From: Escherichia coli
GTDB lineage: Bacteria > Pseudomonadota > Gammaproteobacteria > Enterobacterales > Enterobacteriaceae
Direction: 5' to 3' (one strand)
DNA length: 15,478 nucleotides
Assembly: GCF_003334815.1 (NCBI RefSeq)
Contig: NZ_QOWO01000055.1
Shown here: positions 1 to 15,478 of the stretch, piece by piece
Position numbering within the stretch: the first letter of the stretch is position 1
How the letters are laid out: each line of letters starts with the position of its first letter
Notes under the pieces: generated by a model
Databases searched by the model: none
Told to the model about the DNA's origin: nothing
The model's input: the letters and a program-made list of their open reading frames with translations, nothing else
Translations under genes and position numbers: made by a program

Positions 1-281
1 CGTTCACACGGACCGTGGAGGCCAGTACTGTTCAGCAGATTATCAGGCGCAACTGAAGCGGCATAATCTGCGTGGAAAGCTTCTTTCATTCGCTGAAAGT
101 GGAATGTATCCATGGAGAACACTTTATCAGCCGGGAAATAATGCGGGCAACGGTGTTTAATTATATCGAATGTGATTACAATCGGTGGCGGCGGCACAGT
201 TGGTGTGGCGGCCTCAGTCCGGAACAATTTGAAAACCAGAACCTCGCTTAGGCCTGTGTCCATATTACGTGGGTAGGATCA
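1..281 (+). mobile_element. IS3 insertion sequence, 3' portion only (window begins inside the element); right terminal inverted repeat ends at 281
   Basis: Translation of 2-251 matches, from memory, the C-terminal region of IS3 OrfB/InsF ([24 protein letters not shown] ... [56 protein letters not shown]). The 3' terminus GGCCTGTGTCCATATTACGTGGGTAGGATCA (251-281) resembles the IS3 right inverted repeat (TG...GGACAC motif on the complementary strand). Confidence 0.8.
2..251 (+). pseudogene. insF: IS3 transposase OrfB (InsF) C-terminal fragment, disrupted by an internal deletion and frameshift near position 77
   Basis: The reading frame changes between ...NLRG (ends 76) and FFHSLK... (starts about 81). 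The conserved IS3-family segment between them (SMS-K/R-G-N/C-C-Y/W-DNA-x-x-E) is absent. Stop codon TAG at 249-251. Confidence 0.75.
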
Positions 282-1739
282 CCGCACTCTTGACATAAGA
301 GTGCGGTCCGTGGAAAACGGAGTTGAAAAAATGGTGTCTGAAAGAAGGTACCATCATTGCGATGACAAACACTTTGGCGTGGATAATGTAATTAATTGCT
401 GAAATTGACCGTATATGCGGTAAGACTCATATCAGTATCAGGTCCGGTTAATTGCTGATACTGACATAAACTTTTTACAAAAGGATGAATGCAGAAGGTT
501 ACTCTAATGGCCAGAGTGATGACAATGATGGTCAGACGTTGACCTGCAGAAACTGCATTTTAATTGGTCTATAAAGTCTGCAAGAGGAATCAGGGCCAGA
601 TCAGTGAGTCTTATCGCGGCCCGAAGCTATGACTGAAAGAAGGCTGGATACAGAATTGCAACAATTTGGCAATGTCAGAACACAGAAGCTTTGCAAGCAG
701 GTGAAAGGTTATGTCTAGCAAAAGGAGTATATCAGAATACATCTACTGATGTACAAAACACAACAATAGCTTCATGATATATAAATACGTGATGACGAGT
801 GGTACTCCGCATGGTTATTTAACTTCTCAGCACCACTAATGATCCTGAGCAACTTCGTATTTGGGCCATTGCCATGGAGTAGAAAGCTGTGTCTGAGAAT
901 GCAGAATTTGAGAAAAGAATTCGCTTTCTTGGAGAGCTTCTGAAAATGGCACGCTAACAACGTTTTGTTAAAAAATGTGAATCACTTGCCGAGGCTGCAT
1001 TTTCTATTCGAGGAGAATGTTGACGTAGATATTACAGAAATCTCAGCGCATCAGGATAAACTGCTACCTTAGGTCAACCACCAAAAGAAAATACAATACG
1101 TCCAGTTTGTATGCCTTTAATAACACATCTTTTAAATGTTGAAGAATTATCCCGCCTGCTGAAGAACGTTGCTCTGAGTGTGATAAACCTTTTTATTCTT
1201 GATGATGTCAGCGAGAAGATGGAATATATCCCCGACTGGGTCGTGGTTACCCGGTTAAACATCTGGTGGCGCTAATAAATCTGGCAAGTCACATTCTGTT
1301 GAATGCTGTGACAGTGCCTTACCGAGAGAGCGAAATTGTGGTGTTCTAGTGCATAGTCGCCACCATTCCGGATAATTCTATTGCGTTGTTTTACAAGTTC
1401 TTTTACAGCGCAGATCTGTCGTTGACGTTGAATCAATAGCCTGGATTTCAGAACACAATGCCCGTTTGCTGGTTGGTCCGGCAGTAGCATTAATTCATTA
1501 TCTGAATGAAATGTGTCAATCCACAGAAACCGCTGTCAATGACGCATTTTGTCGGACGTTAACACGAGGAAGTCTGGCTATTCCACAATGCCATCTTCTT
1601 TCGTAATGGATTGAGAATGCTGGATTTTTAATTATATTACGCGCAGTATTGATCGTGTAAATGTTTTGCGGTCAGCAATGGTGGGGGATCCATTGTTCTG
1701 TTCAATGAATACCATCATACAATTGAATCAGGAGTCGGT

Positions 1740-2285
1740 ATGATGATTTTGGTGACGGGGGGCGCACGGAGCGGGAAGAGTCGCCACGCAGAGGCGCTTA
1801 TTGGGGACTCTTCACAGGTTCTGTATATCGCCACCTCGCAAATCCTTGATGACGAGATGGCTGCACGGATAGAACATCATCGGCAAGGCCGTCCGGCGCA
1901 CTGGCGCACGGTGGAGCGTTGGCAACATCTTGATGAATTAATTCATGCAGACATTAACCCGCATGAAGCTGTGTTGCTGGAATGCGTTACCACAATGGTG
2001 ACTAATCTGTTGTTTGATTATGGCGGCGATAAAGACCCTGATGAATGGGATTATCAGGCGATGGAACAGGCGATTAATGCTGAGATTCAGTCGTTGATTG
2101 CTGCCTGCCAACGTTGCCCCGCAAAGGTTGTATTAGTGACTAACGAAGTGGGAATGGGGATTGTGCCGGAGAGTCGTCTGGCACGACATTTTCGTGATAT
2201 TGCCGGGCGGGTAAATCAGCAGCTGGCCGCTGCGGCAAATGAAGTATGGCTGGTGGTTTCGGGTATTGGAGTAAAAATCAAATGA
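1740..2285 (+). CDS. cobU: Adenosylcobinamide kinase / adenosylcobinamide-phosphate guanylyltransferase CobU
   Basis: 181-aa ORF with P-loop GGARSGKS near the N-terminus; sequence and length match E. coli CobU as remembered; first gene of a cobU-cobS-cobT cluster. Confidence 0.95.
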
Positions 2286-3025
2286 GTAAATTATTTTGGG
2301 CGATGCTCTCATTTATTACGCGTCTGCCTGTACCGCGTCGCTGGTCCCAGGGACTGGATTTCGAGCATTATTCTCGCGGTATTATTACTTTTCCTTTAAT
2401 TGGATTATTGCTTGGCGCGATTAGCGGGCTGGTCTTCATGGTGCTGCAGGCATGGTGTGGCGTACCACTGGCGGCACTGTTTAGCGTACTTGTGCTGGCG
2501 CTGATGACCGGGGGATTCCACCTAGACGGCCTCGCCGATACCTGTGATGGCGTATTTTCTGCACGTAGCCGCGATCGCATGTTGGAAATCATGCGTGATA
2601 GCCGTTTAGGCACCCATGGCGGTCTGGCATTGATTTTTGTTGTACTGGCAAAGATTCTGGTATTAAGCGAGTTGGCTCTGCGTGGCGAACCGATCCTTGC
2701 ATCGCTGGCGGCAGCATGTGCGGTCAGCCGCGGGACTGCCGCATTATTGATGTATCGTCATCGTTATGCCCGGGAAGAAGGGCTTGGCAATGTGTTCATT
2801 GGCAAAATTGATGGGCGACAAACCTGCGTCACACTCGGCTTAGCCGCTATTTTTGCTGCCGTATTATTGCCAGGTATGCATGGTGTGGCTGCTATGGTGG
2901 TGACGATGGTGGCGATTTTCATCCTCGGTCAGCTTCTCAAACGTACGCTGGGCGGGCAAACCGGCGATACGCTGGGAGCTGCTATAGAGCTTGGTGAACT
3001 GGTCTTCCTGCTGGCACTGCTATAA
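2282..3025 (+). CDS. cobS: Adenosylcobinamide-GDP ribazoletransferase (cobalamin synthase) CobS
   Basis: Polytopic membrane protein. Start chosen at ATG 2282 ([11 protein letters not shown]...), giving 247 aa, rather than the ORF-track start at 2246; the ATG overlaps the cobU stop (ATGA at 2282-2285). Confidence 0.93.
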
Positions 3026-3036
3026 AGAGACGTGAC

Positions 3037-4116
3037 ATGCAAACACTTGCCGATTTACTGAATACGATCCCTGCTATCGATCCTGCCGCTATGTCGCGTG
3101 CACAACGGCATATTGACGGGTTACTCAAACCTGTTGGTAGCCTGGGAAGGCTGGAGGCGCTTGCCATACAACTGGCGGGAATGCCGGGGTTGAATGGCAT
3201 ACCGCATGTGGGCAAAAAAGCGGTACTGGTTATGTGTGCCGATCACGGCGTCTGGGAGGAAGGGGTCGCTATTTCCCCAAAAGAAGTGACAGCCATTCAG
3301 GCTGAAAATATGACCCGCGGAACAACCGGCGTGTGTGTGCTGGCAGCACAAGCGGGCGCTAACGTCCACGTAGTTGATGTTGGTATTGATAGTGCTGAGC
3401 CTATCCCCGGGCTTATCAACATGCGTGTCGCACGAGGTAGCGGCAATATTGCTTCAGCTCCGGCAATGAGTCGCCGTCAGGCTGAAAAGTTGCTTTTGGA
3501 CGTCATATGTTATACGCGGGAGCTGGCAAAAAACGGTGTCACGCTGTTTGGTGTAGGTGAACTGGGGATGGCAAACACGACACCGGCAGCGGCAATAGTC
3601 AGCACAATCACTGGCCGGGATCCTGAAGAAGTGGTTGGGATTGGCGCAAACCTGCCGACAGATAAACTGGCTAATAAAATTGATGTTGTGCGCCGGGCGA
3701 TTACGTTGAATCAACCAAATCCGCAGGATGGCGTTGATGTTCTGGCAAAAGTGGGGGGATTTGATTTGGTCGGAATGGCTGGCGTGATGTTAGGCGCTGC
3801 TTCCTGCGGTTTACCCGTGTTGCTGGATGGATTTCTTTCTTATGCTGCTGCGCTCGCAGCCTGCCAGATGTCTCCTGCAATCAAACCGTATCTCATTCCT
3901 TCTCACCTGTCGGCAGAAAAAGGGGCGCGTATAGCGCTGTCGCATTTGGGGCTGGAGCCTTATCTCAATATGGAGATGCGTTTAGGTGAGGGGAGTGGCG
4001 CAGCTCTGGCGATGCCCATCATCGAAGCTGCCTGTGCGATATATAACAACATGGGCGAACTTGCTGCCAGTAATATTGTTCTACCGGGGAATACGACTTC
4101 TGATTTGAACAGTTAA
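3037..4116 (+). CDS. cobT: Nicotinate-nucleotide--dimethylbenzimidazole phosphoribosyltransferase CobT
   Basis: 359-aa ORF ([40 protein letters not shown]...), 11 bp downstream of cobS; matches E. coli CobT as remembered. Confidence 0.95.
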
Positions 4117-4177
4117 AAACGAAAAGTCTGATAAAAGCTATACTTAACGGATAGCTTTCGCGACATAGGAAAGGGAC

Positions 4178-5113
4178 ATGATGCGTCGTGTAAATATTCT
4201 TTGCTCATTTGCTCTGCTTTTTGCCAGCCATACTAGCCTGGCGGTAACTTATCCATTACCTCCAGAGGGTAGCCGTTTGGTGGGGCAGTCGCTTACTGTA
4301 ACTGTTCCTGATCACAATACCCAGCCGCTGGAGACTTTTGCCGCACAATACGGGCAAGGGTTAAGTAACATGCTGGAAGCGAATCCGGGCGCTGATGTTT
4401 TCTTGCCGAAGTCTGGCTCGCAACTCACCATTCCGCAGCAACTGATTTTGCCCGCCACTGTTCGTAAAGGGATTGTGGTTAACGTCGCTGAGATGCGTCT
4501 TTATTACTACCCGCCAGACAGTAATACTGTGGAAGTCTTTCCTATTGGTATCGGCCAGGCTGGGCGAGAAACCCCGCGTAACTGGGTGACTACCGTTGAA
4601 CGTAAACAAGAAGCTCCAACCTGGACGCCAACGCCGAACACTCGGCGCGAATATGCGAAACGAGGGGAGAGTTTGCCCGCATTTGTTCCTGCGGGGCCCG
4701 ATAATCCCATGGGGCTGTACGCGATTTATATTGGCAGGTTGTATGCCATCCACGGTACCAATGCCAATTTTGGTATTGGACTTCGGGTAAGTCAGGGCTG
4801 TATTCGTCTGCGCAATGACGATATCAAATATCTGTTTGATAATGTTCCTGTTGGAACGCGTGTGCAAATTATCGACCAGCCAGTAAAATACACCACTGAA
4901 CCAGATGGCTCGAACTGGCTGGAAGTTCATGAGCCGCTGTCGCGCAATCGTGCAGAATATGAGTCTGACCGAAAAGTGCCATTGCCGGTAACCCCATCTT
5001 TGCGGGCGTTTATCAACGGGCAAGAAGTTGATGTGAATCGCGCAAAAGCTGCGTTGCAACGTCGATCGGGAATGCCTGTGCAAATTAGTTCTGGTTCAAG
5101 ACAGATGTTTTAA
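4178..5113 (+). CDS. ldtA: L,D-transpeptidase LdtA (ErfK), YkuD-domain periplasmic protein
   Basis: ORF with N-terminal signal peptide ([22 protein letters not shown]) and L,D-transpeptidase catalytic region (HGT...SQGCIRL). Tandem ATGs at 4178 and 4181; K-12 ErfK is 310 aa, which fits a start at 4181. RBS AGGAAAGGGA at 4167-4176. Confidence 0.9.
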
Positions 5114-5135
5114 GAGCGTTGGTAATTAGAAAGCA

Positions 5136-5164
5136 AAAAGCCTGCTAGAAAGCAGGCTTTTTTG
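5136..5164. terminator. Bidirectional rho-independent terminator between ldtA (+) and tRNA-Asn (-)
   Basis: Stem AGCCTGCT (5139-5146), loop AGAA, stem AGCAGGCT (5151-5158), flanked by an A-run upstream and a T-run downstream, so it works in both directions. Confidence 0.7.
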
Positions 5165-5168
5165 AATT

Positions 5169-5244
5169 TGGCTCCTCTGACTGGACTCGAACCAGTGACA
5201 TACGGATTAACAGTCCGCCGTTCTACCGACTGAACTACAGAGGA
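5169..5244 (-). tRNA. asnV: tRNA-Asn (anticodon GUU)
   Basis: Reverse complement is TCCTCTGTAGTTCAGTCGGTAGAACGGCGGACTGTTAATCCGTATGTCACTGGTTCGAGTCCAGTCAGAGGAGCCA, 76 nt with encoded CCA and anticodon loop CTGTTAA. Gene name assigned by synteny (between nac and erfK in K-12). Confidence 0.96.
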
Positions 5245-5262
5245 ATCGTGTGAATGGGGCGC

Positions 5263-5291
5263 ATATTAATGGCAGTGCATGGTGATGTCAA
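5263..5291 (-). promoter_or_regulatory. Sigma70 promoter of tRNA-Asn (asnV) with GC-rich discriminator
   Basis: On the minus strand: -35 TTGACA (5286-5291), 17-bp spacer, -10 TAATAT (5263-5268), then GC-rich discriminator GCGCCCC before the tRNA 5' end; typical stable-RNA promoter layout. Confidence 0.6.
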
Positions 5292-5364
5292 AGGGTGAAA
5301 TGCATTTTTTTGTTTGTTTGCTGCCAATTTCAACAAAGTGATGAGATTTCAATCTTATTGGTAA

Positions 5365-5381
5365 TGAACCATCGTGGTGCA
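5365..5381 (+). promoter_or_regulatory. Candidate NtrC (NRI) enhancer half-site pair upstream of nac
   Basis: TGAACCATCGTGGTGCA resembles the NtrC consensus TGCACCA-N3-TGGTGCA; it lies about 150 bp upstream of the predicted sigma54 start site. Confidence 0.35.
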
Positions 5382-5498
5382 TACCCTCCTTTTATAGGGC
5401 AGGGGAACGCGACTGCTGGTGAAAAGAGCCAATGACGAATCTATCATAATCTCTTATTTGACAGTTGGTTAGCTTGTACATCAACGCCAAAATAAAAC

Positions 5499-5514
5499 TG
5501 GCAAGCATCTTGCA
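5499..5514 (+). promoter_or_regulatory. Sigma54 (RpoN) promoter of nac
   Basis: TGGCAAGCATCTTGCA: near-consensus -24 GG / -12 GC elements (TGGCA-N7-TTGCA) about 55 bp upstream of the nac ATG; nac is a known sigma54/NtrC-dependent gene. Confidence 0.75.
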
Positions 5515-5569
5515 GTCTGGTTGTAAGTAATGGCGGCACTTGGGCCGATTCTCAAAAACCGGAGGCAAC

Positions 5570-6487
5570 ATGAACTTCAGACGCCTGAAATACTTCGTAA
5601 AAATTGTAGATATTGGTAGCCTGACTCAGGCTGCTGAAGTATTGCATATCGCACAACCAGCGCTCAGCCAGCAGGTTGCCACACTGGAAGGTGAGTTAAA
5701 TCAACAACTTTTGATTCGCACAAAACGGGGCGTTACGCCAACAGACGCCGGAAAAATTCTCTATACCCATGCGCGGGCCATTTTACGTCAGTGTGAGCAG
5801 GCCCAACTGGCGGTGCATAACGTTGGTCAGGCATTATCGGGGCAAGTCTCGATTGGCTTTGCGCCAGGAACCGCTGCGTCATCTATCACCATGCCCTTAT
5901 TACAAGCGGTTCGCGCTGAATTCCCGGAGATCGTTATCTATCTTCATGAAAATAGCGGTGCAGTGCTTAACGAAAAACTGATAAATCACCAACTCGATAT
6001 GGCGGTGATTTATGAGCATTCCCCTGTGGCTGGGGTATCCAGTCAGGCTTTGCTGAAAGAAGATCTTTTCCTGGTAGGAACTCAAGATTGCCCGGGGCAA
6101 AGCGTTGATGTTAATGCTATTGCGCAAATGAACCTCTTTCTCCCCAGTGATTACAGTGCTGTTAGACTTCGTGTTGATGAGGCTTTTTCCCTACGGCGGC
6201 TCACGGCAAAAGTCATTGGTGAAATTGAGTCTATTGCCACGCTTACCGCAGCGATTGCCAGCGGCATGGGCGTTGCAGTATTACCCGAATCGGCCGCGCG
6301 TTCGTTATGTGGCGCAGTAAATGGGTGGATGTCACGCATTACCACGCCTTCCATGAGTCTCTCTTTGTCATTAAATTTACCCGCCAGAGCGAACTTATCG
6401 CCACAGGCACAGGCAGTGAAAGAGTTGTTAATGTCAGTGATTAGTTCTCCAGTGATGGAAAAAAGGCAGTGGCAATTGGTGAGCTAA
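5570..6487 (+). CDS. nac: LysR-family nitrogen assimilation control protein Nac
   Basis: Start at ATG 5570 (MNFRRLKYFVKIVDIGSLTQAAEVLHIAQPALSQQ...), 305 aa, matching E. coli Nac as remembered. The ORF-track start at 5540 is a TTG extension. RBS GGAGG at 5561-5565. Confidence 0.93.
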   Translation: MNFRRLKYFVKIVDIGSLTQAAEVLHIAQPALSQQVATLEGELNQQLLIRTKRGVTPTDAGKILYTHARAILRQCEQAQLAVHNVGQALSGQVSIGFAPGTAASSITMPLLQAVRAEFPEIVIYLHENSGAVLNEKLINHQLDMAVIYEHSPVAGVSSQALLKEDLFLVGTQDCPGQSVDVNAIAQMNLFLPSDYSAVRLRVDEAFSLRRLTAKVIGEIESIATLTAAIASGMGVAVLPESAARSLCGAVNGWMSRITTPSMSLSLSLNLPARANLSPQAQAVKELLMSVISSPVMEKRQWQLVS

Positions 6488-6588
6488 GCGTTATATCGGG
6501 ATGGAATAAGATGCGGGTTTTTATTATTTGTTATGCCGGGCATTAGACTTTAACAATAACGGGAAATCTGAGCTGCCCGGAGTTTACC

Positions 6589-7539
6589 GTGAATTTCCAA
6601 CAACTAAAGATAATCCGCGAGGCTGCACGTCAGGATTACAACCTGACAGAGGTTGCGAATATGCTTTTTACCTCACAGTCCGGCGTCAGCCGTCATATTC
6701 GGGAACTGGAGGATGAACTTGGCATCGAAATATTTGTTCGACGAGGTAAGCGACTGCTGGGCATGACTGAACCGGGCAAAGCATTACTGGTCATTGCAGA
6801 ACGTATTCTGAATGAAGCCAGTAATGTTCGTCGGCTTGCAGACCTGTTTACCAACGATACGTCTGGCGTTCTCACTATTGCAACGACGCATACTCAGGCA
6901 CGTTATAGCTTGCCTGAGGTCATTAAAGCTTTTCGCGAACTTTTCCCGGAGGTTCGGCTGGAGCTAATCCAGGGTACGCCACAGGAAATTGCGACGTTGT
7001 TGCAAAATGGCGAAGCTGATATTGGTATCGCCAGCGAGCGTTTGAGTAATGACCCGCAGCTCGTCGCCTTCCCGTGGTTTCGTTGGCACCATAGTTTGCT
7101 TGTTCCACTCGATCATCCCTTGACGCAAATTACACCGTTGACGCTGGAATCAATAGCGAAGTGGCCGTTAATCACTTACCGACAGGGGATTACGGGGCGC
7201 TCACGTATTGATGACGCATTTGCCCGCAAAGGTTTGCTGGCAGATATTGTATTAAGTGCGCAGGATTCTGATGTCATTAAAACCTATGTTGCTCTTGGGC
7301 TGGGGATTGGATTAGTTGCCGAACAATCCAGCGGCGAACAAGAGGAAGAGAATTTAATCCGTCTGGATACGCGGCATCTTTTCGATGCCAATACTGTATG
7401 GTTGGGACTGAAGCGAGGGCAACTTCAACGTAACTATGTCTGGCGCTTTCTGGAACTTTGTAATGCAGGACTGTCAGTTGAGGATATCAAGCGCCAGGTG
7501 ATGGAGAACAGTGAAGAGGAAATTGATTATCAGATATAG
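6589..7539 (+). CDS. cbl: LysR-family regulator Cbl (CysB-like; sulfonate-sulfur utilisation activator)
   Basis: 316-aa ORF starting with GTG at 6589 (MNFQQLKIIREAARQDYNLTEVANMLFTSQSGVSRHIRELEDELG...), immediately downstream of nac as in E. coli. Confidence 0.93.
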   Translation: MNFQQLKIIREAARQDYNLTEVANMLFTSQSGVSRHIRELEDELGIEIFVRRGKRLLGMTEPGKALLVIAERILNEASNVRRLADLFTNDTSGVLTIATTHTQARYSLPEVIKAFRELFPEVRLELIQGTPQEIATLLQNGEADIGIASERLSNDPQLVAFPWFRWHHSLLVPLDHPLTQITPLTLESIAKWPLITYRQGITGRSRIDDAFARKGLLADIVLSAQDSDVIKTYVALGLGIGLVAEQSSGEQEEENLIRLDTRHLFDANTVWLGLKRGQLQRNYVWRFLELCNAGLSVEDIKRQVMENSEEEIDYQI

Positions 7540-7544
7540 CAAGA

Positions 7545-7568
7545 AGCCCGCTATAAAAGCGGGCTTTT
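7545..7568. terminator. Bidirectional rho-independent terminator between cbl (+) and tRNA-Asn (-)
   Basis: Stem AGCCCGC (7545-7551), loop TATAAAA, stem GCGGGCT (7559-7565), then TTTT. Confidence 0.7.
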
Positions 7569-7576
7569 CAGAAATT

Positions 7577-7652
7577 TGGCTCCTCTGACTGGACTCGAAC
7601 CAGTGACATACGGATTAACAGTCCGCCGTTCTACCGACTGAACTACAGAGGA
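7577..7652 (-). tRNA. asnU: tRNA-Asn (anticodon GUU)
   Basis: Identical 76-nt sequence to the other two tRNA-Asn copies (reverse complement of 7577-7652). Name by synteny (between cbl and yeeO). Confidence 0.96.
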
Positions 7653-7668
7653 ATCGCTGTTGAGGCAC

Positions 7669-7696
7669 ATCTTAACGGCGAAAAATCTTTTGTCAA
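7669..7696 (-). promoter_or_regulatory. Sigma70 promoter of tRNA-Asn (asnU)
   Basis: Minus strand: -35 TTGACA (7691-7696), 16-bp spacer, -10 TAAGAT (7669-7674), GC-rich discriminator GTGCCTC, then tRNA. Confidence 0.6.
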
Positions 7697-7812
7697 ACCC
7701 GATTTTTAAATTTCCCAACTGTTTGCCGTTTCTATCAACAGTTTGTTGCATTTGCAGACAATTTGTTGGCGAAAATCTTTGCAGCTTTGCTGATTCTCCC
7801 TCATTATTTGAA

Positions 7813-9300
7813 ATGTGGTTTCACTTTCTGCAATTAAGGTCGGCTTTGAATATCTCCTCTGCTTTACGCCAGGTTGTTCACGGCACTCGCTGGCACGCTA
7901 AACGCAAGAGCTACAAAGTGTTGTTCTGGCGCGAGATAACCCCGCTTGCTGTTCCTATCTTCATGGAGAATGCCTGTGTCCTGTTGATGGGTGTCCTGAG
8001 CACTTTTCTGGTCAGCTGGCTGGGAAAAGATGCGATGGCCGGCGTGGGATTGGCGGACAGCTTCAATATGGTCATTATGGCTTTTTTTGCTGCTATCGAT
8101 CTTGGTACTACTGTCGTTGTGGCATTTAGTCTCGGTAAGCGGGATCGACGACGAGCGAGGGTGGCGACGCGGCAGTCATTGGTGATCATGACGTTGTTTG
8201 CCGTACTGTTGGCAACGCTTATTCATCATTTTGGCGAACAAATTATTGATTTCGTCGCGGGTGATGCCACGACAGAAGTTAAAGCACTGGCGTTGACTTA
8301 TCTGGAGCTGACGGTACTCAGTTATCCAGCAGTTGCCATCACTTTGATTGGTAGCGGGGCACTTCGTGGTGCAGGGAATACGAAAATACCGCTACTGATT
8401 AACGGTAGCCTGAATATTCTTAATATTATTATTAGCGGCATATTGATTTACGGCCTTTTCTCCTGGCCGGGACTGGGATTTGTCGGGGCAGGGCTGGGTT
8501 TAACCATTTCTCGTTATATTGGCGCAGTTGCAATTTTGTGGGTGCTGGCGATTGGTTTTAATCCTGCGCTAAGGATTTCGTTAAAGAGCTATTTTAAACC
8601 GCTGAATTTTAGCATTATCTGGGAAGTCATGGGGATTGGTATTCCCGCTAGTGTCGAATCAGTGTTATTTACCAGTGGTCGGTTATTAACCCAAATGTTC
8701 GTTGCCGGGATGGGGACCAGTGTTATTGCCGGAAATTTTATCGCGTTTTCAATTGCGGCTCTTATCAACTTACCCGGAAGTGCGCTCGGCTCTGCTTCTA
8801 CGATCATTACAGGCCGAAGGTTGGGGGTAGGGCAGATAGCGCAAGCAGAGATTCAGTTGCGGCATGTGTTCTGGCTGTCCACTCTTGGATTAACGGCCAT
8901 CGCCTGGCTAACGGCTCCCTTTGCCGGGCTTATGGCATCGTTTTACACCCAGGATCCACAGGTTAAACATGTCGTTGTGATTCTGATTTGGCTAAATGCT
9001 TTATTTATGCCTATTTGGTCCGCCTCATGGGTGCTACCCGCTGGATTTAAAGGTGCTCGTGATGCCCGTTACGCCATGTGGGTTTCGATGTTGAGCATGT
9101 GGGGTTGTCGGGTTGTCGTCGGTTATGTGCTGGGAATCATGCTTGGCTGGGGTGTGGTTGGTGTCTGGATGGGAATGTTTGCCGACTGGGCTGTGCGGGC
9201 TGTGCTGTTTTACTGGCGAATGGTTACTGGACGTTGGCTATGGAAATACCCTCGACCCGAGCCGCAAAAGTGTGAAAAAAAGCCAGTTGTGTCGGAATAA
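7813..9300 (+). CDS. yeeO: MATE-family efflux transporter YeeO (reported flavin/dipeptide exporter)
   Basis: Start placed at ATG 7813 (MWFHFLQLRSALNISSALRQ...), giving 495 aa with multiple hydrophobic transmembrane segments. The ORF-track 546-aa version starts at TTG 7660 and runs through the asnU promoter. Confidence 0.88.
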   Translation: MWFHFLQLRSALNISSALRQVVHGTRWHAKRKSYKVLFWREITPLAVPIFMENACVLLMGVLSTFLVSWLGKDAMAGVGLADSFNMVIMAFFAAIDLGTTVVVAFSLGKRDRRRARVATRQSLVIMTLFAVLLATLIHHFGEQIIDFVAGDATTEVKALALTYLELTVLSYPAVAITLIGSGALRGAGNTKIPLLINGSLNILNIIISGILIYGLFSWPGLGFVGAGLGLTISRYIGAVAILWVLAIGFNPALRISLKSYFKPLNFSIIWEVMGIGIPASVESVLFTSGRLLTQMFVAGMGTSVIAGNFIAFSIAALINLPGSALGSASTIITGRRLGVGQIAQAEIQLRHVFWLSTLGLTAIAWLTAPFAGLMASFYTQDPQVKHVVVILIWLNALFMPIWSASWVLPAGFKGARDARYAMWVSMLSMWGCRVVVGYVLGIMLGWGVVGVWMGMFADWAVRAVLFYWRMVTGRWLWKYPRPEPQKCEKKPVVSE

Positions 9301-9353
9301 ACGACAAAATGCAGATTATTTCAGCAAACGATTTCAAATTTAAAAAACAGGCT

Positions 9354-9382
9354 TTGACATTGTGGGTGGGCATCGCTAATAT
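9354..9382 (+). promoter_or_regulatory. Sigma70 promoter of tRNA-Asn (asnW) with upstream AT-rich UP-like region
   Basis: -35 TTGACA (9354-9359), 17-bp spacer, -10 TAATAT (9377-9382), GC-rich discriminator TCGCCTCG; AT-rich tract ATTTCAAATTTAAAAAACAG upstream. Confidence 0.65.
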
Positions 9383-9400
9383 TCGCCTCGTTCTCACGAT

Positions 9401-9476
9401 TCCTCTGTAGTTCAGTCGGTAGAACGGCGGACTGTTAATCCGTATGTCACTGGTTCGAGTCCAGTCAGAGGAGCCA
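9401..9476 (+). tRNA. asnW: tRNA-Asn (anticodon GUU)
   Basis: TCCTCTGTAGTTCAGTCGGTAGAACGGCGGACTGTTAATCCGTATGTCACTGGTTCGAGTCCAGTCAGAGGAGCCA. Name by synteny (between yeeO and yeeN). Confidence 0.96.
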
Positions 9477-9537
9477 AATTTTAGTTTTGAGACATCTCTA
9501 TGAGTCTCAAAACAGTTAAAAAATAAAAGTTATTTTT

Positions 9538-9574
9538 ACCCGGTTACCTTGTAAAAAAGTGACCGGGTTTTTTG
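9538..9574 (+). terminator. Rho-independent terminator downstream of asnW
   Basis: ACCCGGT (9538-9544), long loop, ACCGGGT (9562-9568), followed by TTTTTTG. A separate 10-bp perfect palindrome GTTTTGAGAC...GTCTCAAAAC at 9484-9513 precedes it. Confidence 0.6.
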
Positions 9575-9888
9575 ATTTCTGTGTTTCGTGCGCTTAATCG
9601 AGTCTCACGCTTCAGTGAGCAAGTTGCCCCCCAACAGACATCACGATTCGCAAGGTCAAAAACTCTGTTCCATGAAGTACCGTACAAAGATAAAGAGAAA
9701 AATGCCTTATGCGGGATGTCGCTATCGCGTCTTTATCGGGAAACTATGCGTAATTGCCACTTTGCCTTCTGTAATCAGAAAAAGAAGAACTGGAATTTTA
9801 ATAAATATTATTTCTCTGGGAACGGGGATTTTTTATAATCAATATGACGAGTTGAACATTATATTTTTTATAAGGGTTATATGAGATT

Positions 9889-9919
9889 AAAGAAATCTGC
9901 CGTAAAGACAGATTTCTTT
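9889..9919 (-). terminator. Stem-loop downstream of yeeN (putative terminator)
   Basis: 11-bp perfect inverted repeat AAAGAAATCTG / CAGATTTCTTT with a 9-nt loop, 10 bp past the yeeN stop; the flanking U-tract on the minus strand is weak. Confidence 0.4.
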
Positions 9920-9928
9920 AAAATATAA

Positions 9929-10645
9929 TTAGAGATTTGCGACGTTATGATAAACTTTTTGTACATCGTCGTCATCTTCAAGGGCATCAACAAGCCCTTC
10001 AAAGATTTCTAAATCTTCTGGGGAAAGCTCAACTTCAGATTGCGCAATCATTTCTAATTCTGTTGTTGAGAACTCAGTGATTCCAGCTGCTTTTAGAGCC
10101 GCGATTCCTTTATGAAGGTCAGTAGGTTCGGTATAAATAACAATGTTACCTTCTTCTTCAGTCACATCACGAACATCAACTTCAGCTTCAAGTAAAATTT
10201 CAAAAATATGGTCAGGGTCTGATCCTTTAAATACAATCACACCCGTATTGTCAAACATATAGCTGACAGAACCTGCCGCTCCGATATTGCCGCCTTTTTT
10301 ATTGAAAATTGTGCGAACGTTAGCAATCGTACGGTTAACATTTGAAGTCAATGTCTCGGCGATAATCATTGAGCCATTAGGACCAAAGCCTTCATAACGG
10401 CCCTGCACGAACGTTTCATCTCCGCCGCCTTTGGCTTTATCAATTGCTTTATCAATAACGTGCTTTGGAACTTGTGCCTGCTTTGCACGTTCAATAACGA
10501 ATTTTAAAGATGTGTTTAATTCTGGATCGGGTTCACCTTGTTTAGCAGCAGCATAGATTTCTACACCGAATTTTGCATAAATTTTAGACGTTGCACCGTC
10601 TTTAGCCGTTTTTTTAGCAACAATATTGGCCCATTTACGTCCCAC
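9929..10645 (-). CDS. yeeN: YebC/PmpR-family transcriptional regulatory protein YeeN
   Basis: 238-aa ORF ([31 protein letters not shown]...), characteristic YebC-family N-terminus; matches E. coli YeeN in length. Confidence 0.92.
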
Positions 10646-10987
10646 TGGAATGATCTCCTCGAAAATTTATTTACATTACTGGTAAATCGTTAACATGTGT
10701 TAAATCAGCATATTATATCATAACAGGAAAAATCTCGTCTATTAGAAATAAAAATATTCTAAAGCCATAATCTTATATTTTGTTTTATAAAAACTAATGT
10801 TGTTGGCGGGATTTTTTATAATTATATTTTGAAAGCATACATGCTTTTAATATGCGGAAATCATTAAGACGATAATGAAACTCGCATCTGCCCAAGGAAG
10901 CAAACAGCCCGCGTTGATTGCAGGCTATTTGCCAGATGTCTTACTTAATCCTTCACATCTATTTCTGATGAGAAGGTTCAGAACTTA

Positions 10988-12442
10988 TTATCGGAACGGC
11001 GGCTCATTAAAGGTTCGTAATTTACGCGAATGCAGTCGGTCGCCTTCTGCGCGCAGCAAATCGATCGCCCGAATGCCAATTTGCAGGTGTTCGGAAATAG
11101 CACCTTCATAAAAACGGTTAGCCTGACCGGGAAGTTTAATCTCGCCATGCAACGGTTTATCTGAAACACACAGTAGTGTCCCGTATGGCACGCGGAAACG
11201 ATATCCTTGCGCGGCAATGGTTGCACTTTCCATATCAATTGCTACGGCCCGGCTTAAGTTAAAACGAAGTGCAGAAGCTGAGTAACGTAATTCCCAGTTC
11301 CTGTCATCTGTGGTTACCACAGTACCAGTACGTAGCCGCTGTTTGACTTCCTCACCGGGCCTGCCACTCACCAGCTTGGTGGCGTCATAAAGCGCACGTT
11401 GCACTTCAGCAATGCTCGGAATAGGAATATCGGGCGGCAGAACCGCATCAAGAACGTGGTCATCGCGTAAATAAGCGTGTGCAAGTACATAATCGCCAAT
11501 GGCCTGACTTTCACGTAATCCGCCACAGTGACCAATCATCAACCAGACATCCGGGCGTAGCACTGCCAGATGATCGCAGATGGTTTTAGCATTGGAAGGT
11601 CCCACGCCAATATTCACCAGAGTAATACCCTGAGCATCGGCGGTAATTAAATGCCATGCTGGCATCTGGTGTTTTTTCCATGCAAGGTCGGAAATGGCTT
11701 CTTCTGGCGCTTCGGTTTCGGCGGTGATCCAGTTCCCGCCAGCACAAGAAAGGGCAATGTAAGGACTATCAGGATCGAGGATCTGGCTGCATCCCCAACG
11801 AACGAATTCATCCACATAACGTGTGTAGTTGGTAAACAAGACGAACGGCTGAAAATGTTCAACTGGCGTACCGGTATAATGGCGCAACCGTGCGAGGGAA
11901 AAATCGACGCGGCGCGCATCAAAATGCGATAGCGGGGAGAATTCCGTTGGATGATAAATGCCGTCTGCAGTTTCATCGCCAATTTGCGCCAGTTCTGTTG
12001 TCGGGAAGTAGCGAGTTAACCCAGCGCTCATTGAGCGATCAAGTGTCAATTCAGAGCCATCGATGACATAAGGATAAGGGATTTCATGCTGCGAGGGTTG
12101 CACAGAGATATGCGCACCATAATCCTGATACAGCAACGTAAGTTGTTCATTAAGATACGAACGAAAGAGAGTAGGGCGAGTAATCGTGGTGGTGTAGCTG
12201 CCTGCGTGAGTAAAACGACCAAATGCGCGCGTTTTGGGGGGATTGGTTGTGCTACCGTCCCAGGTTACGGTCAGTGATGGATAGACAAAAAGACCTTGTT
12301 TGCGGGCGTTTTCATCAGGTAATTCGCCACTTGTAATATAGTTGCCAATGGCGTTGCGTAATGCGACTACAGATTGCTCATACAGCGCGTCGAGTTTATC
12401 CAGTGCCTGAGCTGGGGTCAGACCGGAGCCCTTATTATTCAT
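10988..12442 (-). CDS. amn: AMP nucleosidase
   Basis: Start at ATG 12442 (MNNKGSGLTPAQALDKLDALYEQSVVALRNAIGNYITSGELPDENARKQGLFVYPSL...), 484 aa; RBS AGGAG just upstream on the minus strand. The ORF-track start at 12598 is an extension that overlaps the shiA 3' end. Confidence 0.93.
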   Translation of the reverse strand: MNNKGSGLTPAQALDKLDALYEQSVVALRNAIGNYITSGELPDENARKQGLFVYPSLTVTWDGSTTNPPKTRAFGRFTHAGSYTTTITRPTLFRSYLNEQLTLLYQDYGAHISVQPSQHEIPYPYVIDGSELTLDRSMSAGLTRYFPTTELAQIGDETADGIYHPTEFSPLSHFDARRVDFSLARLRHYTGTPVEHFQPFVLFTNYTRYVDEFVRWGCSQILDPDSPYIALSCAGGNWITAETEAPEEAISDLAWKKHQMPAWHLITADAQGITLVNIGVGPSNAKTICDHLAVLRPDVWLMIGHCGGLRESQAIGDYVLAHAYLRDDHVLDAVLPPDIPIPSIAEVQRALYDATKLVSGRPGEEVKQRLRTGTVVTTDDRNWELRYSASALRFNLSRAVAIDMESATIAAQGYRFRVPYGTLLCVSDKPLHGEIKLPGQANRFYEGAISEHLQIGIRAIDLLRAEGDRLHSRKLRTFNEPPFR

Positions 12443-12513
12443 GTGTGTCTCCTGTTCCATACAATTACCGCACATCCGATAGTATGTCACAGAAATGTGA
12501 AACAAAAGTGTAA

Positions 12514-12537
12514 GGCGAAGATCGGATGATCTTCGCC
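12514..12537 (-). terminator. Stem-loop just downstream of shiA (putative terminator, in the amn upstream region)
   Basis: Perfect 10-bp inverted repeat GGCGAAGATC / GATCTTCGCC with 4-nt loop GGAT, 7 bp past the shiA stop. Confidence 0.5.
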
Positions 12538-12543
12538 AGGCTA

Positions 12544-13860
12544 TCAAGCGCGTTGACTGTCTTTCATCAACAAAGCGGTCATTGCGGAAATCAGGCATCC
12601 AGCCAGCAAATAAATGGCGACGCTATGCCAGTTCCCGGCAAAGTAAGTGATGAGTGCAGCGGCAATAAAAGGTGTAAATCCACCGCCAACCACACTGGCA
12701 ACCTGATAACCGACTCCAGCGCCACTATAGCGATAACTGGCACCAAACATTTCGGTAAACATCGGTTGTTGCACACACACCACCATGTCATGCGCAATGT
12801 TTGCCAGCATTATGGAGAAGAAAACTATCCAGAAAATAGATTGTGCTTCAAGCGCCATAAAGAAAGGAAATGCGCTCAACGTTCCGATTAACGCACCTGT
12901 GATATAAACCCTACGGCGACCAAAACGATCGGCAAGCCAGGCAAAACAGGGAATTGTCAGGCAGCTTAATCCACCTACCAGCAAACCAATATTAAGGAAA
13001 AGTTCGCGCGGTAGCCCCATATTCTGGGTTGAATAATTAAGTGCAAAGGCAGTAACGATGTACATCGTCAGCAATTCGCACAGTCGTAGCGCAATAATCT
13101 TCAGGAAAGCACCGGGATGTCGTAACAGCGCTTCGATAACCGGGATGCGTTTTTTCGCGGCAGCTTGATAATGTTGCTGTTGTTCAAATTCCGCGGACTC
13201 TTCCATGCCATTGCGCACCCACAATGCTCCCAGTACCAGTACGATGCTAAACAGGAAAGGAATGCGCCAGCCCCAGCTTAAAAACTGTTCGTCAGTCGTC
13301 ATCATACTGATCAATGAAACCAGTCCGGTTGAAAGCAGTAAACCTACACCGTAGCCAACTTGTACACCGCTACTGTAAAAGGCTTTTTTATTTTTCGGTG
13401 CACTTTCAACGGAAAGCAACGCCGCGCCTCCCCATTCGCCGCCGACGGCAAATCCCTGAATGGCACGCAGTGTCACCAGCAAAATAGGTGCCCACCACCC
13501 AATGGTCGAGAATGAAGGAAGAATACCAATCAAGGCTGTCGCGATGCCCATCATCCAGACGGTCAGCATTAACATGCGCTTACGTCCCAGTCGGTCGCCA
13601 AAGTGACCGAAAATGACACCGCCGAGCGGACGGAAAAGGAATCCGACGCCAAAGGTAGCAAATGCGGCGAGCGTTCCCATCGCCGGGCTTACTTGCGGGA
13701 AAAACTCGCGATTAAACACCAGTGCGGCGGTGATGCCATAGAGTAAAAAATCATACCAGTCGACGACGGCACCAGCGAAGCTGCCTAACGCAGCTCGTCG
13801 GGCGCGACTTAACGAAAGCGTCCCTTCATCGGGACGAGTGGAGATGAGCGTGGAGTCCAT
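12544..13860 (-). CDS. shiA: Shikimate transporter ShiA (major facilitator superfamily)
   Basis: 438-aa polytopic membrane ORF (MDSTLISTRPDEGTLSLSRARRAALGSFAGAVVDWYDFLLYG...), MFS signature GHFGDRLGRKR; length matches E. coli ShiA. Confidence 0.93.
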   Translation of the reverse strand: MDSTLISTRPDEGTLSLSRARRAALGSFAGAVVDWYDFLLYGITAALVFNREFFPQVSPAMGTLAAFATFGVGFLFRPLGGVIFGHFGDRLGRKRMLMLTVWMMGIATALIGILPSFSTIGWWAPILLVTLRAIQGFAVGGEWGGAALLSVESAPKNKKAFYSSGVQVGYGVGLLLSTGLVSLISMMTTDEQFLSWGWRIPFLFSIVLVLGALWVRNGMEESAEFEQQQHYQAAAKKRIPVIEALLRHPGAFLKIIALRLCELLTMYIVTAFALNYSTQNMGLPRELFLNIGLLVGGLSCLTIPCFAWLADRFGRRRVYITGALIGTLSAFPFFMALEAQSIFWIVFFSIMLANIAHDMVVCVQQPMFTEMFGASYRYSGAGVGYQVASVVGGGFTPFIAAALITYFAGNWHSVAIYLLAGCLISAMTALLMKDSQRA

Positions 13861-14174
13861 AATGATCCTGTTTGTACTGTCTTTTTATAATTAGTATGGA
13901 AAAGGTAACTCACATTGCCGTCGATCTATAAACGAACCTTATGAGACTACCTCGACAGAGCGCATCTGCAAATGATTTTATGGCTGATTAGCGGCAACAT
14001 GAAAAATTCGATGGAAGATGAAAGCGCAGGAGTTGCTGGTGTTGTTTAAGGATTAAGCAGAGGACCCACAGGTTAGAGATATGAAACATAAAAGTCCGCA
14101 TATGCACAAAATGGCACCCTGATGAGTCTGATAGACTGCATTGCATTATAACCAGTAGGGAGGCGAGGTTAGGT

Positions 14175-14777
14175 ATGTTTTTAGCATCATTGTTGAGACG
14201 TATTGCATTTAGTTACTACGATTATAAAGCTTATAATTTCAATATTGAAAAAACAGACTTTGTTGTCATCCATATTCCCGATCAGATTGGCGATGCTATG
14301 GCCATCTTTCCTGTTATTCGGGCGCTTGAATTGCATAAAATTAAGCATCTATTAATTGTTACGTCGACAATTAATTTAGAAGTCTTTAATGCGCTCAAAC
14401 TTGAACTGACTAAATTAACATTAGTTACAATGACTATGCAGGATCACGCAACATTAAAAGAAATAAAAAATTTAGCGAAGAACATAACACTGCAATACGG
14501 TACGCCGGATCTTTGTATAGAGGCGATGCGTAAAAAGAACCTGAAAACGATGATATTTATCAGTCAGTTGAAAGCAAAAACGAATTTTCAGGTTGTTGGT
14601 ATAACCATGAATTGCTTCTCCCCTTTGTGCAAGAACGCGTCCCGTATGGATCAGAAACTCCGGGCTCCCGTACCTATGACATGGGCATTTATGATGCGTG
14701 AGGCGGGTTTTCCAGCAGTCAGGCCAATATATGAATTGAATCGCCACGGGTTTAACAGACACCTCAGAGTCATTTAA
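14175..14777 (+). pseudogene. yeeL: yeeL-like putative glycosyltransferase (family 9 heptosyltransferase-like N-terminal region), 3'-truncated remnant
   Basis: The 200-aa ORF has an N-terminal pattern resembling GT9 heptosyltransferases (VVIHIPDQIGDAMAIFPVIRALE) but is far shorter than the ~320-350 aa typical for the family. AT-rich body until about 14600, then a GC-richer tail that runs into the IS3-family element. Position divergent from shiA matches K-12 yeeL, which is a pseudogene there. Confidence 0.5.
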
Positions 14778-15050
14778 GATGACTTAAAGAGAGGTGCCCA
14801 TGAGTGGTAAGCGTTATCCCGAAGAGTTTAAAATTGAAGCAGTCAAACAGGTTGTTGATCGCGGTTATTCTGTTGCCAGCGTTGCAACACGTCTCGATAT
14901 CACCACCCACAGCCTTTACTCCTGGATAAAGAAGTACGGTCCGGATTCTTCCACTAATAAAGAACAGTCAGATGCTCAGGCCGAGATCCGCCGTCTCCAG
15001 AAAGAGCTGAAGCGGGTTACCGACGAACGGGACATATTAAAAAAAGCCGT
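14732..15050 (+). mobile_element. IS3-family insertion sequence (possibly IS600-like), 5' portion; left boundary approximate; interrupted at 15050/15051 by IS30
   Basis: Contains an IS3-family OrfA. Upstream sequence GGGTTTAACAGACACC carries the GGACAC-like motif common in IS3-family left ends. Left end placed 60-70 bp upstream of the orfA ATG by analogy; not verified. Confidence 0.55.
14800..15050 (+). pseudogene. IS3-family transposase OrfA (HTH plus leucine-zipper protein), C-terminally truncated by the IS30 insertion
   Basis: MSGKRYPEEFKIEAVKQVVDRGYSVASVATRLDITTHSLYSWIKKYGPDSSTNKEQSDAQAEIRRLQKELKRVTDERDILKKA, then reads into the IS30 end. Programmed -1 frameshift-type heptamer A_AAA_AAA at 15039-15045. 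The ORF-track start at GTG 14794 is 2 codons upstream. Confidence 0.75.
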
Positions 15051-15478
15051 TGTAGATTCAATCTGTCAATGCAACACCCCTTTCAATTATCTCTTTCGGT
15101 GTTTTGAACTTCAGTGTCTTTCTCGGTCTGTTGTTTAGCTGAGCAGCAACCAGATCTAGTTCATGTTGAGTATATTGGGCAAGACATGTCTTTTTAGGAA
15201 AGTACTGCCGAATTAGCCCATTTGTGTTCTCATTTGTTCCCCGCTGCCAAGGACTCTGAGGATCGCAGAAGTAAACTTTAACGCCGGTGCTGACAGTAAA
15301 TTCTAGATGTCTGGCCAGTTCCATTCCTCTGTCCCATGTCAGTGATTTTCTGAGTTCTGACGGTAAACTCAGGAATTTGTCGGTAAGAGCCTGATTTACT
15401 GAGACAGAATCTTTGCCCCTGAGTCTAAGGATGATCGTATAACGTGATTTTCGGTCTACAAGTGTGGCTATATGAGAG
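15051..15478 (-). mobile_element. IS30 insertion sequence, one end (terminal inverted repeat begins TGTAGATTCAAT at 15051); continues beyond the window
   Basis: The terminal sequence TGTAGATTCAATCTGTCAATGCAAC matches the remembered IS30 inverted repeat, and the adjacent ORF on the minus strand is the IS30 transposase C-terminus. Confidence 0.8.
15058..15478 (-). CDS. insI: IS30 transposase (DDE, IS30 family), C-terminal 139 codons; N-terminus lies outside the window
   Basis: The minus-strand frame is open from the window edge: SHIATLVDRKSRYTIILRLRGKDSVSVNQALTDKFLSLPSELRKSLTWDRGMELARHLEFTVSTGVKVYFCDPQSPWQRGTNENTNGLIRQYFPKKTCLAQYTQHELDLVAAQLNNRPRKTLKFKTPKEIIERGVALTD. It contains the IS30-family signature PWQRG-NENTNGL-RQYFPK. 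Confidence 0.85.
   Translation of the reverse strand, partial: SHIATLVDRKSRYTIILRLRGKDSVSVNQALTDKFLSLPSELRKSLTWDRGMELARHLEFTVSTGVKVYFCDPQSPWQRGTNENTNGLIRQYFPKKTCLAQYTQHELDLVAAQLNNRPRKTLKFKTPKEIIERGVALTD

Follow-up and report, generated by a model that had tools for sequence, protein, structure and literature searches.

Unrelated IS3-family elements at the two edges of the cobUST–shiA block of Escherichia coli

Do the two IS3-family elements that bracket the cobUST–shiA genes in the same orientation mobilise or rearrange the DNA between them? The stretch that raises this question, referred to here as the window, comprises 15,478 nucleotides of the E. coli chromosome and is collinear, in reversed orientation, with the 2.05-2.07 Mb region of K-12; from position 1346 to 14738 the collinear alignment has 98.4% identity. 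The closest complete genome, strain 52F4 (GCF_055807995.1), lies 4 SNPs from the window and served as the reference for annotation and copy counts, and population frequencies were taken from 5,426 complete E. coli genomes. The following anatomy was observed directly, as were the sequence identities, the genome frequencies and the copy numbers in 52F4.

1–281, + strand: 3′ end of IS3 (3′ part of orfB and right terminal inverted repeat), from the sequence and the PGAP annotation of 52F4
282–1606, no strand given: pseudogene rubble of a CP4-44-type island adjoining cobU, matching the K-12 yoeH/yoeG/yeeH region
1248–1436, inside the island rubble: IS4-family fragment
1445–1606, inside the island rubble: remnant of a cobalamin-biosynthesis gene
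1740–2285, + strand: cobU
2282–3025, + strand: cobS
3037–4116, + strand: cobT
4178–5113, + strand: ldtA (erfK), L,D-transpeptidase
5169–5244, − strand: asnV, tRNA-Asn
5570–6487, + strand: nac, LysR-type regulator
6589–7539, + strand: cbl, LysR-type regulator
7577–7652, − strand: asnU, tRNA-Asn
7813–9300, + strand: yeeO, MATE efflux transporter
9401–9476, + strand: asnW, tRNA-Asn, inverted relative to asnV and asnU (inverted-repeat pairs)
9929–10645, − strand: yeeN
10988–12442, − strand: amn
12544–13860, − strand: shiA
14175–14736, + strand: yeeL′, a family-9 glycosyltransferase pseudogene cut off by the right-hand element, ISR (homology to K-12 ends at 14738)
14737–15050, + strand: the 5′ 314 bp of ISR, with the left terminal repeat, orfA from 14801 and an A AAA AAG frameshift window at the end
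15051–15478, transposase on the − strand: 428 bp of IS30, up to the window end

The first-pass annotation placed cobUST through shiA between the two elements, and this arrangement is confirmed, with the truncated yeeL following shiA. The core between the elements (282-14736; 14,455 bp) was found in 5425 of the 5426 genomes, is contiguous in 4245 of them (78%), and its locus was unchanged in every genome inspected. We are therefore confident that the cobUST–shiA block is ordinary, ancestral E. coli core chromosome and not mobile cargo; the stretch is already well known and conserved, and finding it here is ordinary. The island rubble next to cobU is 99.2% identical to K-12 2068422-2067354, although K-12 carries an IS5H at the equivalent of window positions 1346-1349 that the window lacks. 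Neither the yeeL′ fragment nor the cobalamin-gene remnant had a match in NCBIfam. The three tRNAs were the sole matches in an Rfam scan of the window, which thus revealed no riboswitch or small RNA linked to the IS bracketing.

What are the two flanking elements? As the first-pass annotation supposed, the left one is a partial IS3 on the plus strand: positions 1-281 are its 3′ end, and the right terminal inverted repeat, ending ...CGTGGGTAGGATCA, stops exactly at 281 (the terminal repeat sequence of IS3 is TGATC(T/C)TACCC...). Read in 52F4, the element has the TG...CA repeats and the orfA/orfB layout of the IS3 family, both of which it shares with IS3 itself (insE/insF). It differs from IS3 in lacking 44 bp of orfB and the 3-bp target duplication. 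The 44 bp were lost between 10-bp CTGCGTGGAA direct repeats at approximately window positions 67-77, and the deletion frameshifts orfB just ahead of the region encoding the catalytic Glu. The copy in 52F4 is consequently 1214 bp long, versus 1258 bp for the intact IS3 that ETEC H10407 carries at this site, which is annotated with a "programmed frameshift"; apart from the deletion, the two copies differ at 4 positions. PGAP labels the 52F4 copy "IS3 family transposase, frameshifted". The absence of the target duplication (the flanks read agg and ccg in 52F4, cag and ccg in H10407) fits a later adjacent deletion and is no argument against membership in IS3. The DNA to the left of IS3 varies from strain to strain, and because a variable far flank accompanies a missing duplication, past IS-adjacent deletions at IS3 seem probable. 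The IS3 junction is carried by 465 genomes, or ~9% of the complete E. coli genomes, and strain 19-5 has lost IS3 through 10-bp microhomology. We suggest that the left IS3 is an old insertion and that the 44-bp deletion in orfB, probably a slippage event, killed it afterwards.

The right-hand element, ISR, is a second IS3-family element, 1229 bp long once the IS30 within it is taken out; the remainder lies past the window end. The first-pass annotation put its start at about 14732. The strand was correct, with orfA on the plus strand from 14801, and the exact start is 14737. As reconstructed in 52F4, the terminal repeats of ISR match over TGAATCGCCACGG, its A AAA AAG frameshift motif is located at the orfA/orfB overlap, and against the IS3-family model NF033516 its orfB scores 358 bits (cutoff 160) and its orfA 66 bits. 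These features assign ISR to the IS3 family as judged from sequence; PGAP and NCBIfam give it no name more specific than "IS3 family". No target duplication flanks it (left flank aat, right flank gtg). ISR stands in place of K-12 2046772-2052764, 5,993 bp of yeeL-yeeJ, and the replacement of 6 kb speaks for a deletion next to the IS. In a small clade, the right-hand IS has removed most of the adhesin gene yeeJ. The junction between yeeL′ and the left end of ISR occurs in 49 genomes (~1%), and the form bearing IS30 at this locus in 24. Full-length copies of ISR with 98-99% identity are present in 184 genomes.

The right end had been described as a cluster of an IS3-family element and IS30 with the transposase frames on the plus strand. 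Instead, the two are nested. IS30 lies inside ISR, splitting orfA from orfB and flanked by a 2-bp duplication, GT, at 15049-15050, and only ISR reads on the plus strand, the IS30 transposase being on the minus strand. In 52F4 this IS30 is intact, 1221 bp long, 99.8% identical to K-12 IS30A and IS30D, and bounded by TGTAGATTCAAT... terminal repeats, and its transposase scores 276 bits against NF033563. Length, transposase, terminal repeats and 2-bp duplication all identify it, by sequence features, as IS30. PGAP marks both IS3 and ISR as pseudogenes. The right cluster of other strains has taken up additional nested insertions, both IS elements and a group II intron. We suppose that ISR is a recent arrival and that IS30 then inactivated it by way of a hot spot in the ISR frameshift window.

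Two IS3-family elements, similarly oriented on either side of a gene block, recall composite transposons such as Tn10 and Tn5, in which an IS likewise lies at each end of a block of genes, and could be read as a unit able to move cobUST–shiA. The first-pass annotation thought this improbable, and we would go further, giving it next to no probability. In contrast to Tn10 and Tn5, the flanking elements are unlike, both are defective, no duplication flanks the whole, and the cargo is ancestral core DNA at a constant locus. The complete IS3 and ISR of 52F4 share 72% identity over 153 bp only and have different terminal repeats, bearing out the suggestion that they are different IS3-family members; the two ends carry neither the same IS nor cross-recognised ones. 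Within the window, which holds opposite ends of IS3 and ISR, a search found no repeats joining its two ends. A functional transposase is missing from both sides, since IS3 orfB is frameshifted and ISR is split, and the outer flanks of the IS3-core-ISR unit, agg and gtg, show no target duplication. Nor does the unit occupy variable loci: the core is at one locus in 5425 of 5426 genomes, no genome among the matches listed has a second core copy, and the IS junctions are present in just 465 and 49. By chance alone, two unrelated IS point the same way in 1 of 2 cases, and their agreement here has no statistical force. A composite transposon is thus effectively ruled out, and recombination between IS3 and ISR is rejected for want of usable homology; without such homology and with unlike ends, the two elements cannot act as a composite or recombine together. 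Because the core is nearly universal and the junctions are rare, we infer that IS3 and ISR are late arrivals at ancestral edges. We propose that the core lies between two regions that accumulate mobile DNA, the CP4-44-type remnant on the cobU side and yeeL/yeeJ on the shiA side, and that two unrelated IS3-family elements landed at its edges independently. As a lead, the bracketing is closed: what flanks the block is a pair of unrelated IS copies, both dead.

Could the flanking IS, together with homologous copies elsewhere, be actively rearranging the block in this lineage? The first-pass annotation proposed that other copies in the genome could drive its deletion, inversion or duplication. Potential partners do exist. 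By an IS census that is a proxy, giving places per record in 52F4 without position or orientation, the chromosome has one further IS3 copy and three further IS30 copies. Chimeric queries, used to bring the 24-genome clade of the window to the top of the match table for copy counts, gave 2-8 matching places per chromosome within that clade for the IS3 tail plus junction and 1-7 for the junction plus IS30, and the ISR 3′ part with its yeeJ flank matched 2 places in 52F4. The intact IS30 adds to the case, as IS30 generates deletions and inversions (PMC9333248), and the missing target duplications of IS3 and ISR speak for earlier rearrangements, of which we infer both the mechanism, adjacent deletion, and the order.

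IS629/IS1203-type deletions are common in O157. The one deletion of the entire block that was found is in O157:H7 strain WS4202, which has lost cobU to shiA with part of yeeJ, and an IS3-family element, IS1203, lies exactly at the deletion junction, which is the type of event that the first-pass annotation predicted. Both the element and the lineage differ from those of the window, however, and in the window's own clade the block is intact. No deletion of the block caused by IS3 or ISR was found, nor was any variant of it traceable to IS30; the search likewise found no inversion or duplication of cobUST–shiA, in finished assemblies, which hide rare within-culture variants. All six genomes inspected at the locus (52F4, 19-5, NCCP 15734, LH13-b, K-12 and H10407) are collinear, H10407 at the cobU-side end only and the other five over the whole block. 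Both IS ends do have structural variants at or next to them, but these remodel the IS elements themselves or sequence beyond the block, the block itself being collinear in the inspected genomes.

Uniqueness and decay of both elements, named at the outset as what would speak against their role, are found in part: both are decayed and the ISR 5′ part, having no other copy in the 52F4 chromosome, is without a partner, whereas IS3 has its one other copy and IS30 its three. Recombination that involves the block through partner IS3 or IS30 copies is possible in principle, and any future rearrangement would need those copies, as is generic to any IS. The proposal is in this sense generic and partly supported: the partners are there, and no rearrangement attributable to them was found. 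We consider active rearrangement of the block by its flanking IS in this lineage quite improbable.

Where, then, does the block break? The core is contiguous in most genomes, and where it is split the breakpoints lie at asnV (window ~5165) and asnW (~9490-9750), not at the IS ends. The three tRNA-Asn genes asnV, asnU and asnW are mutual repeats of 84-104 nt. It has been reported that the pks island inserts at asnW, asnV or asnU and that the 4.3-kb asnV-asnW segment inverts (PMC8209727), and the asnV and asnW breakpoints fit this published island insertion and inversion. The window resembles carriers of the pks island or the HPI, which reside at asnT/U/V/W, in holding asnV, asnU and asnW, of which asnV and asnW are where the core breaks in the population; it differs from those carriers in that all three genes are free of islands and in retaining the K-12 orientation. 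Structural change in this region is really concentrated at the asn tRNA genes and in IS nests that lie beyond the block.

Finally, we note that a single insertion point in ISR holds IS30 in either orientation (643 and 586 genomes), which is the pattern of a hot spot that is hit repeatedly and independently. The same is true of K-12, where IS911A::IS30A and IS911B::IS30D (insN/insI/insO) carry IS30 at the homologous point, in both orientations, likewise just after A AAA AAG and with a 2-bp duplication. ISR differs from IS911 in being another, 1229-bp IS3-family member, and blastn gave no match between the two. IS30 is known to prefer hot-spot sequences (PMC9333248). Might the nested ISR::IS30 instead go back to one founding insertion, carried around by plasmids and islands, with no hot spot involved? 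The same junction between the ISR 5′ part and IS30 does recur in many different settings, ColV-type plasmids near tsh among them. The flipped junctions disfavor a single ancestor, because the orientation of IS30 relative to its flank cannot be changed by recombination within the element, and the 586 genomes with the opposite orientation at the same nucleotide position, the K-12 IS911 copies and the documented preference of IS30 together make such an ancestor unlikely. Preferring a hot spot, we tentatively put forward a broader possibility, to which we give somewhat less than even weight: the frameshift window of IS911-like IS3-family elements (ATATTAAAAAA(A)G-C, followed by the 2-bp target) may serve as a hot spot dedicated to IS30, through which this subgroup would be systematically disabled throughout E. 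coli. ISR::IS30 occurs in ~640 and ~590 genomes in the two orientations, against the 184 with intact ISR; if the proposal is correct, antagonism between one IS and another would shape which elements stay active.

How are the insertion elements at the two edges of the cobUST-shiA block related to each other, and what have they done to the DNA between them? In a megablast comparison of the whole window with 5,426 complete E. coli genomes, every genome matched, and the top match, strain 52F4 (NZ_CM147848.1), covers the full window length with only 4 positions different. Its annotation gives the following order.

Gene order at the locus in strain 52F4 (52F4 annotation)
Start: IS3 (frameshifted), IS4-family fragment, cobalamin-biosynthesis gene fragment
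Then: cobU, cobS, cobT, ldtA
Then: tRNA-Asn, nac, cbl, tRNA-Asn, yeeO, tRNA-Asn
Then: yeeN, amn, shiA, truncated family-9 glycosyltransferase (yeeL)
Then: partial transposase, IS30 (minus strand), remainder of the IS3-family transposase
End: truncated yeeJ, tRNA-Asn (asnT), mtfA

The window is the K-12 2.04-2.08 Mb region in reverse, collinear by BLAST at 98.4% over 1346-14738 and at 99.2% over 281-1349; the sole difference within this span is IS5H, which K-12 carries and for which the window has an empty site (1346-1349). Upstream of cobU, the stretch 1248-1606 holds an IS4-family fragment and a cobalamin-biosynthesis gene remnant (1445-1606). ARAGORN and Rfam searches of the window returned nothing beyond three tRNA-Asn genes. 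The G+C content is 34-41% over yeeN and its flanks (9501-11000) and 36% over the yeeL remnant (14001-14500), versus about 48-54% in most neighbouring genes. Outside the window, sbmC, a DNA gyrase inhibitor gene, is annotated in 52F4 as a pseudogene with an internal stop (locus extract L001, 2685-3158).

Full-length IS3 and the full-length right-hand IS3-family element, which we call ISR, share 72% identity over 153 bp only, in the catalytic core (blastn). Their terminal repeats are unrelated, and no duplication is common to the outer flanks of the IS3-ISR unit. A composite transposon is therefore ruled out, as is recombination between the two elements. The first-pass annotation had likewise taken them for different IS3-family members and the block for probably not a composite transposon; it had also placed the whole right-hand cluster on the plus strand, which is wrong for IS30. 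The bracketing it described is largely real, but what brackets the block is a pair of inactivated IS elements, unrelated to each other, each of which came independently to one edge of a conserved core stretch.

The left element terminates with ...GGCCTGTGTCCATATTACGTGGGTAGGATCA at window position 281, and in 52F4 it starts with TGATCTTACCCAGCAATAGTGG..., 1,214 bp upstream. ETEC H10407 supplies the reference, an intact 1,258-bp "IS3-like element IS3 family transposase" with the same right-hand junction; the left IS3 differs from it at 4 aligned positions and by one 44-bp deletion, which is bounded by a pair of CTGCGTGGAA repeats (window about 67-77) and frameshifts orfB. No 3-bp target duplication is present (flanks agg/ccg in 52F4, cag/ccg in H10407). 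The junction with the right flank occurs in 465 of the 5,426 genomes, among them O26:H11, EAEC 042 and H10407, so the insertion is an old one. The left flank is variable, with a phosphotriesterase-like pseudogene fragment in most genomes; that of H10407 (L006 1850-3325) is DNA that in strain 19-5 (L003 4363-6000) lies 1.4 kb further out. Such differences between flanks fit deletions next to the IS. In strain 19-5 IS3 itself is gone, removed by a deletion between a 10-bp GTCCATATTA repeat in the left flank (L003 5990-6030) and its second copy in the element's right terminal repeat (window 258-281), which has left the last 24 bp of IS3 as a scar. The shiA gene of this strain has an internal stop (L003 18289-19605).

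ISR begins at 14737 with TGAATCGCCACGGGTTTAACAGACAC and encodes orfA on the plus strand from 14801. It is cut at 15051 by IS30, which starts TGTAGATTCAATCTGTC... and in 52F4 is 1,221 bp long, with its transposase on the minus strand and a GT duplication at its flanks. Rebuilt without IS30, ISR is a 1,229-bp IS3-family element whose terminal repeats match; it has an A AAA AAG frameshift window, its orfB scores 358 bits on NF033516, and full-length copies of 98-99% identity occur in 184 genomes. It has no target duplication (flanks aat and gtg) and occupies the place of 5,993 bp in K-12, made up of the yeeL 3' part together with 5.2 kb of yeeJ, and so is linked to an adjacent deletion. The truncated yeeL is joined to the first 40 bp of ISR in only 49 genomes, and 24 genomes have the IS30-bearing ISR at this locus. 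Other members of this small clade retain no more of ISR than those 40 bp, after which NCCP 15734 carries another IS3-family element with a group II intron (L004 2002-5542), and LH13-b carries a truncated IS30 along with two additional IS3-family elements (L005 1729-6046). The yeeL-yeeJ junction is a fast-evolving IS "nest".

The nested arrangement of ISR and IS30 is itself recurrent. The window's junction between them (15031-15070) recurs on plasmids as well as at many places in the chromosome; the 643 genomes that have it far outnumber the 184 with an intact ISR. A flipped junction, built in silico by reversing IS30 at the same nucleotide of ISR, is found in 586 genomes at up to 100% identity. 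Because recombination inside IS30 cannot turn the element around with respect to its flank, the two orientations represent independent insertions at one site. The frameshift windows of K-12 IS911A and IS911B are occupied at the homologous point by IS30A and IS30D, one in each orientation (L015 2500-2570 and L016 2930-2990). The target is ATATTAAAAAAGGCT[AC] in IS911 and ATATTAAAAAAAGCC[GT] in ISR; blastn detects no similarity between the genuine K-12 IS911A or IS911B and ISR. IS30 is known to favour hot-spot sequences and its own terminal repeats (PMC9333248). An IS30 hot spot thus appears to be common to IS911-like elements, and hot-spot insertion best explains the nested element in the window. 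At another chromosomal locus, in AH21 (L008 3502-5698), the nested element lacks ISR 315-567 immediately beside IS30, which suggests an IS30-adjacent deletion.

Could copies elsewhere in the genome rearrange the block, as the first-pass annotation proposed? Partners were counted as matching places per chromosome, the window's own copy included, with queries built to rank the 24-genome clade first.

Matching places in the 52F4 chromosome
Truncated yeeL and 5' part of ISR: 1 place, no other copy
IS3 tail and junction: 3 places, one other IS3
Junction and IS30: 4 places, three other IS30
3' part of ISR and yeeJ flank: 2 places

Across the clade, the places per chromosome range from 2 to 8 for the IS3-tail query and from 1 to 7 for the IS30 query. 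Both bracketing elements have decayed. In the 52F4 chromosome ISR is essentially unique, whereas IS3 and IS30 have homologous partners. The outcome named beforehand as refuting the proposal, with both elements unique, decayed and lacking partners, is therefore only half borne out. The proposal is partly supported and is a generic one, and we see nothing new in kind in the IS-bracketed block.

A core query (window 1740-14000) was found in 5,425 of the 5,426 genomes and is contiguous in 4,245. In the non-contiguous genomes sampled, the breaks lie at query positions of about 3,425 and about 7,750-8,000, that is, at asnV and asnW, in agreement with published work that describes asnW, asnV or asnU as the insertion site of the pks island and, in some strains, an inversion of the 4.3-kb segment asnV-asnU-asnW (PMC8209727). 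The three identical tRNA-Asn genes form direct and inverted repeats of 84-104 nt (window 5165-5268, 7572-7656 and 9377-9481).

Repeats formed by the tRNA-Asn genes
asnV/asnU: direct repeat, 84 nt, 100%
asnV/asnW: inverted repeat, 104 nt, 96%
asnU/asnW: inverted repeat, 85 nt, 100%

All six genomes inspected closely are collinear at the locus, H10407 at the cobU-side end only. One further genome gave no match to the core query, and O157:H7 WS4202 is the sole genome of the 5,426 whose match was just tRNA-Asn-sized. WS4202 (L007 4001-8713) lacks all of the cobU-shiA block together with yeeL and a portion of yeeJ, and an intact IS1203 lies exactly where an island remnant meets the truncated yeeJ. 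The block has here been lost entirely, in a real deletion associated with an IS3-family element, yet both the element and the lineage differ from those of the window, and the loss suggests that cells can do without the block, at least in culture.
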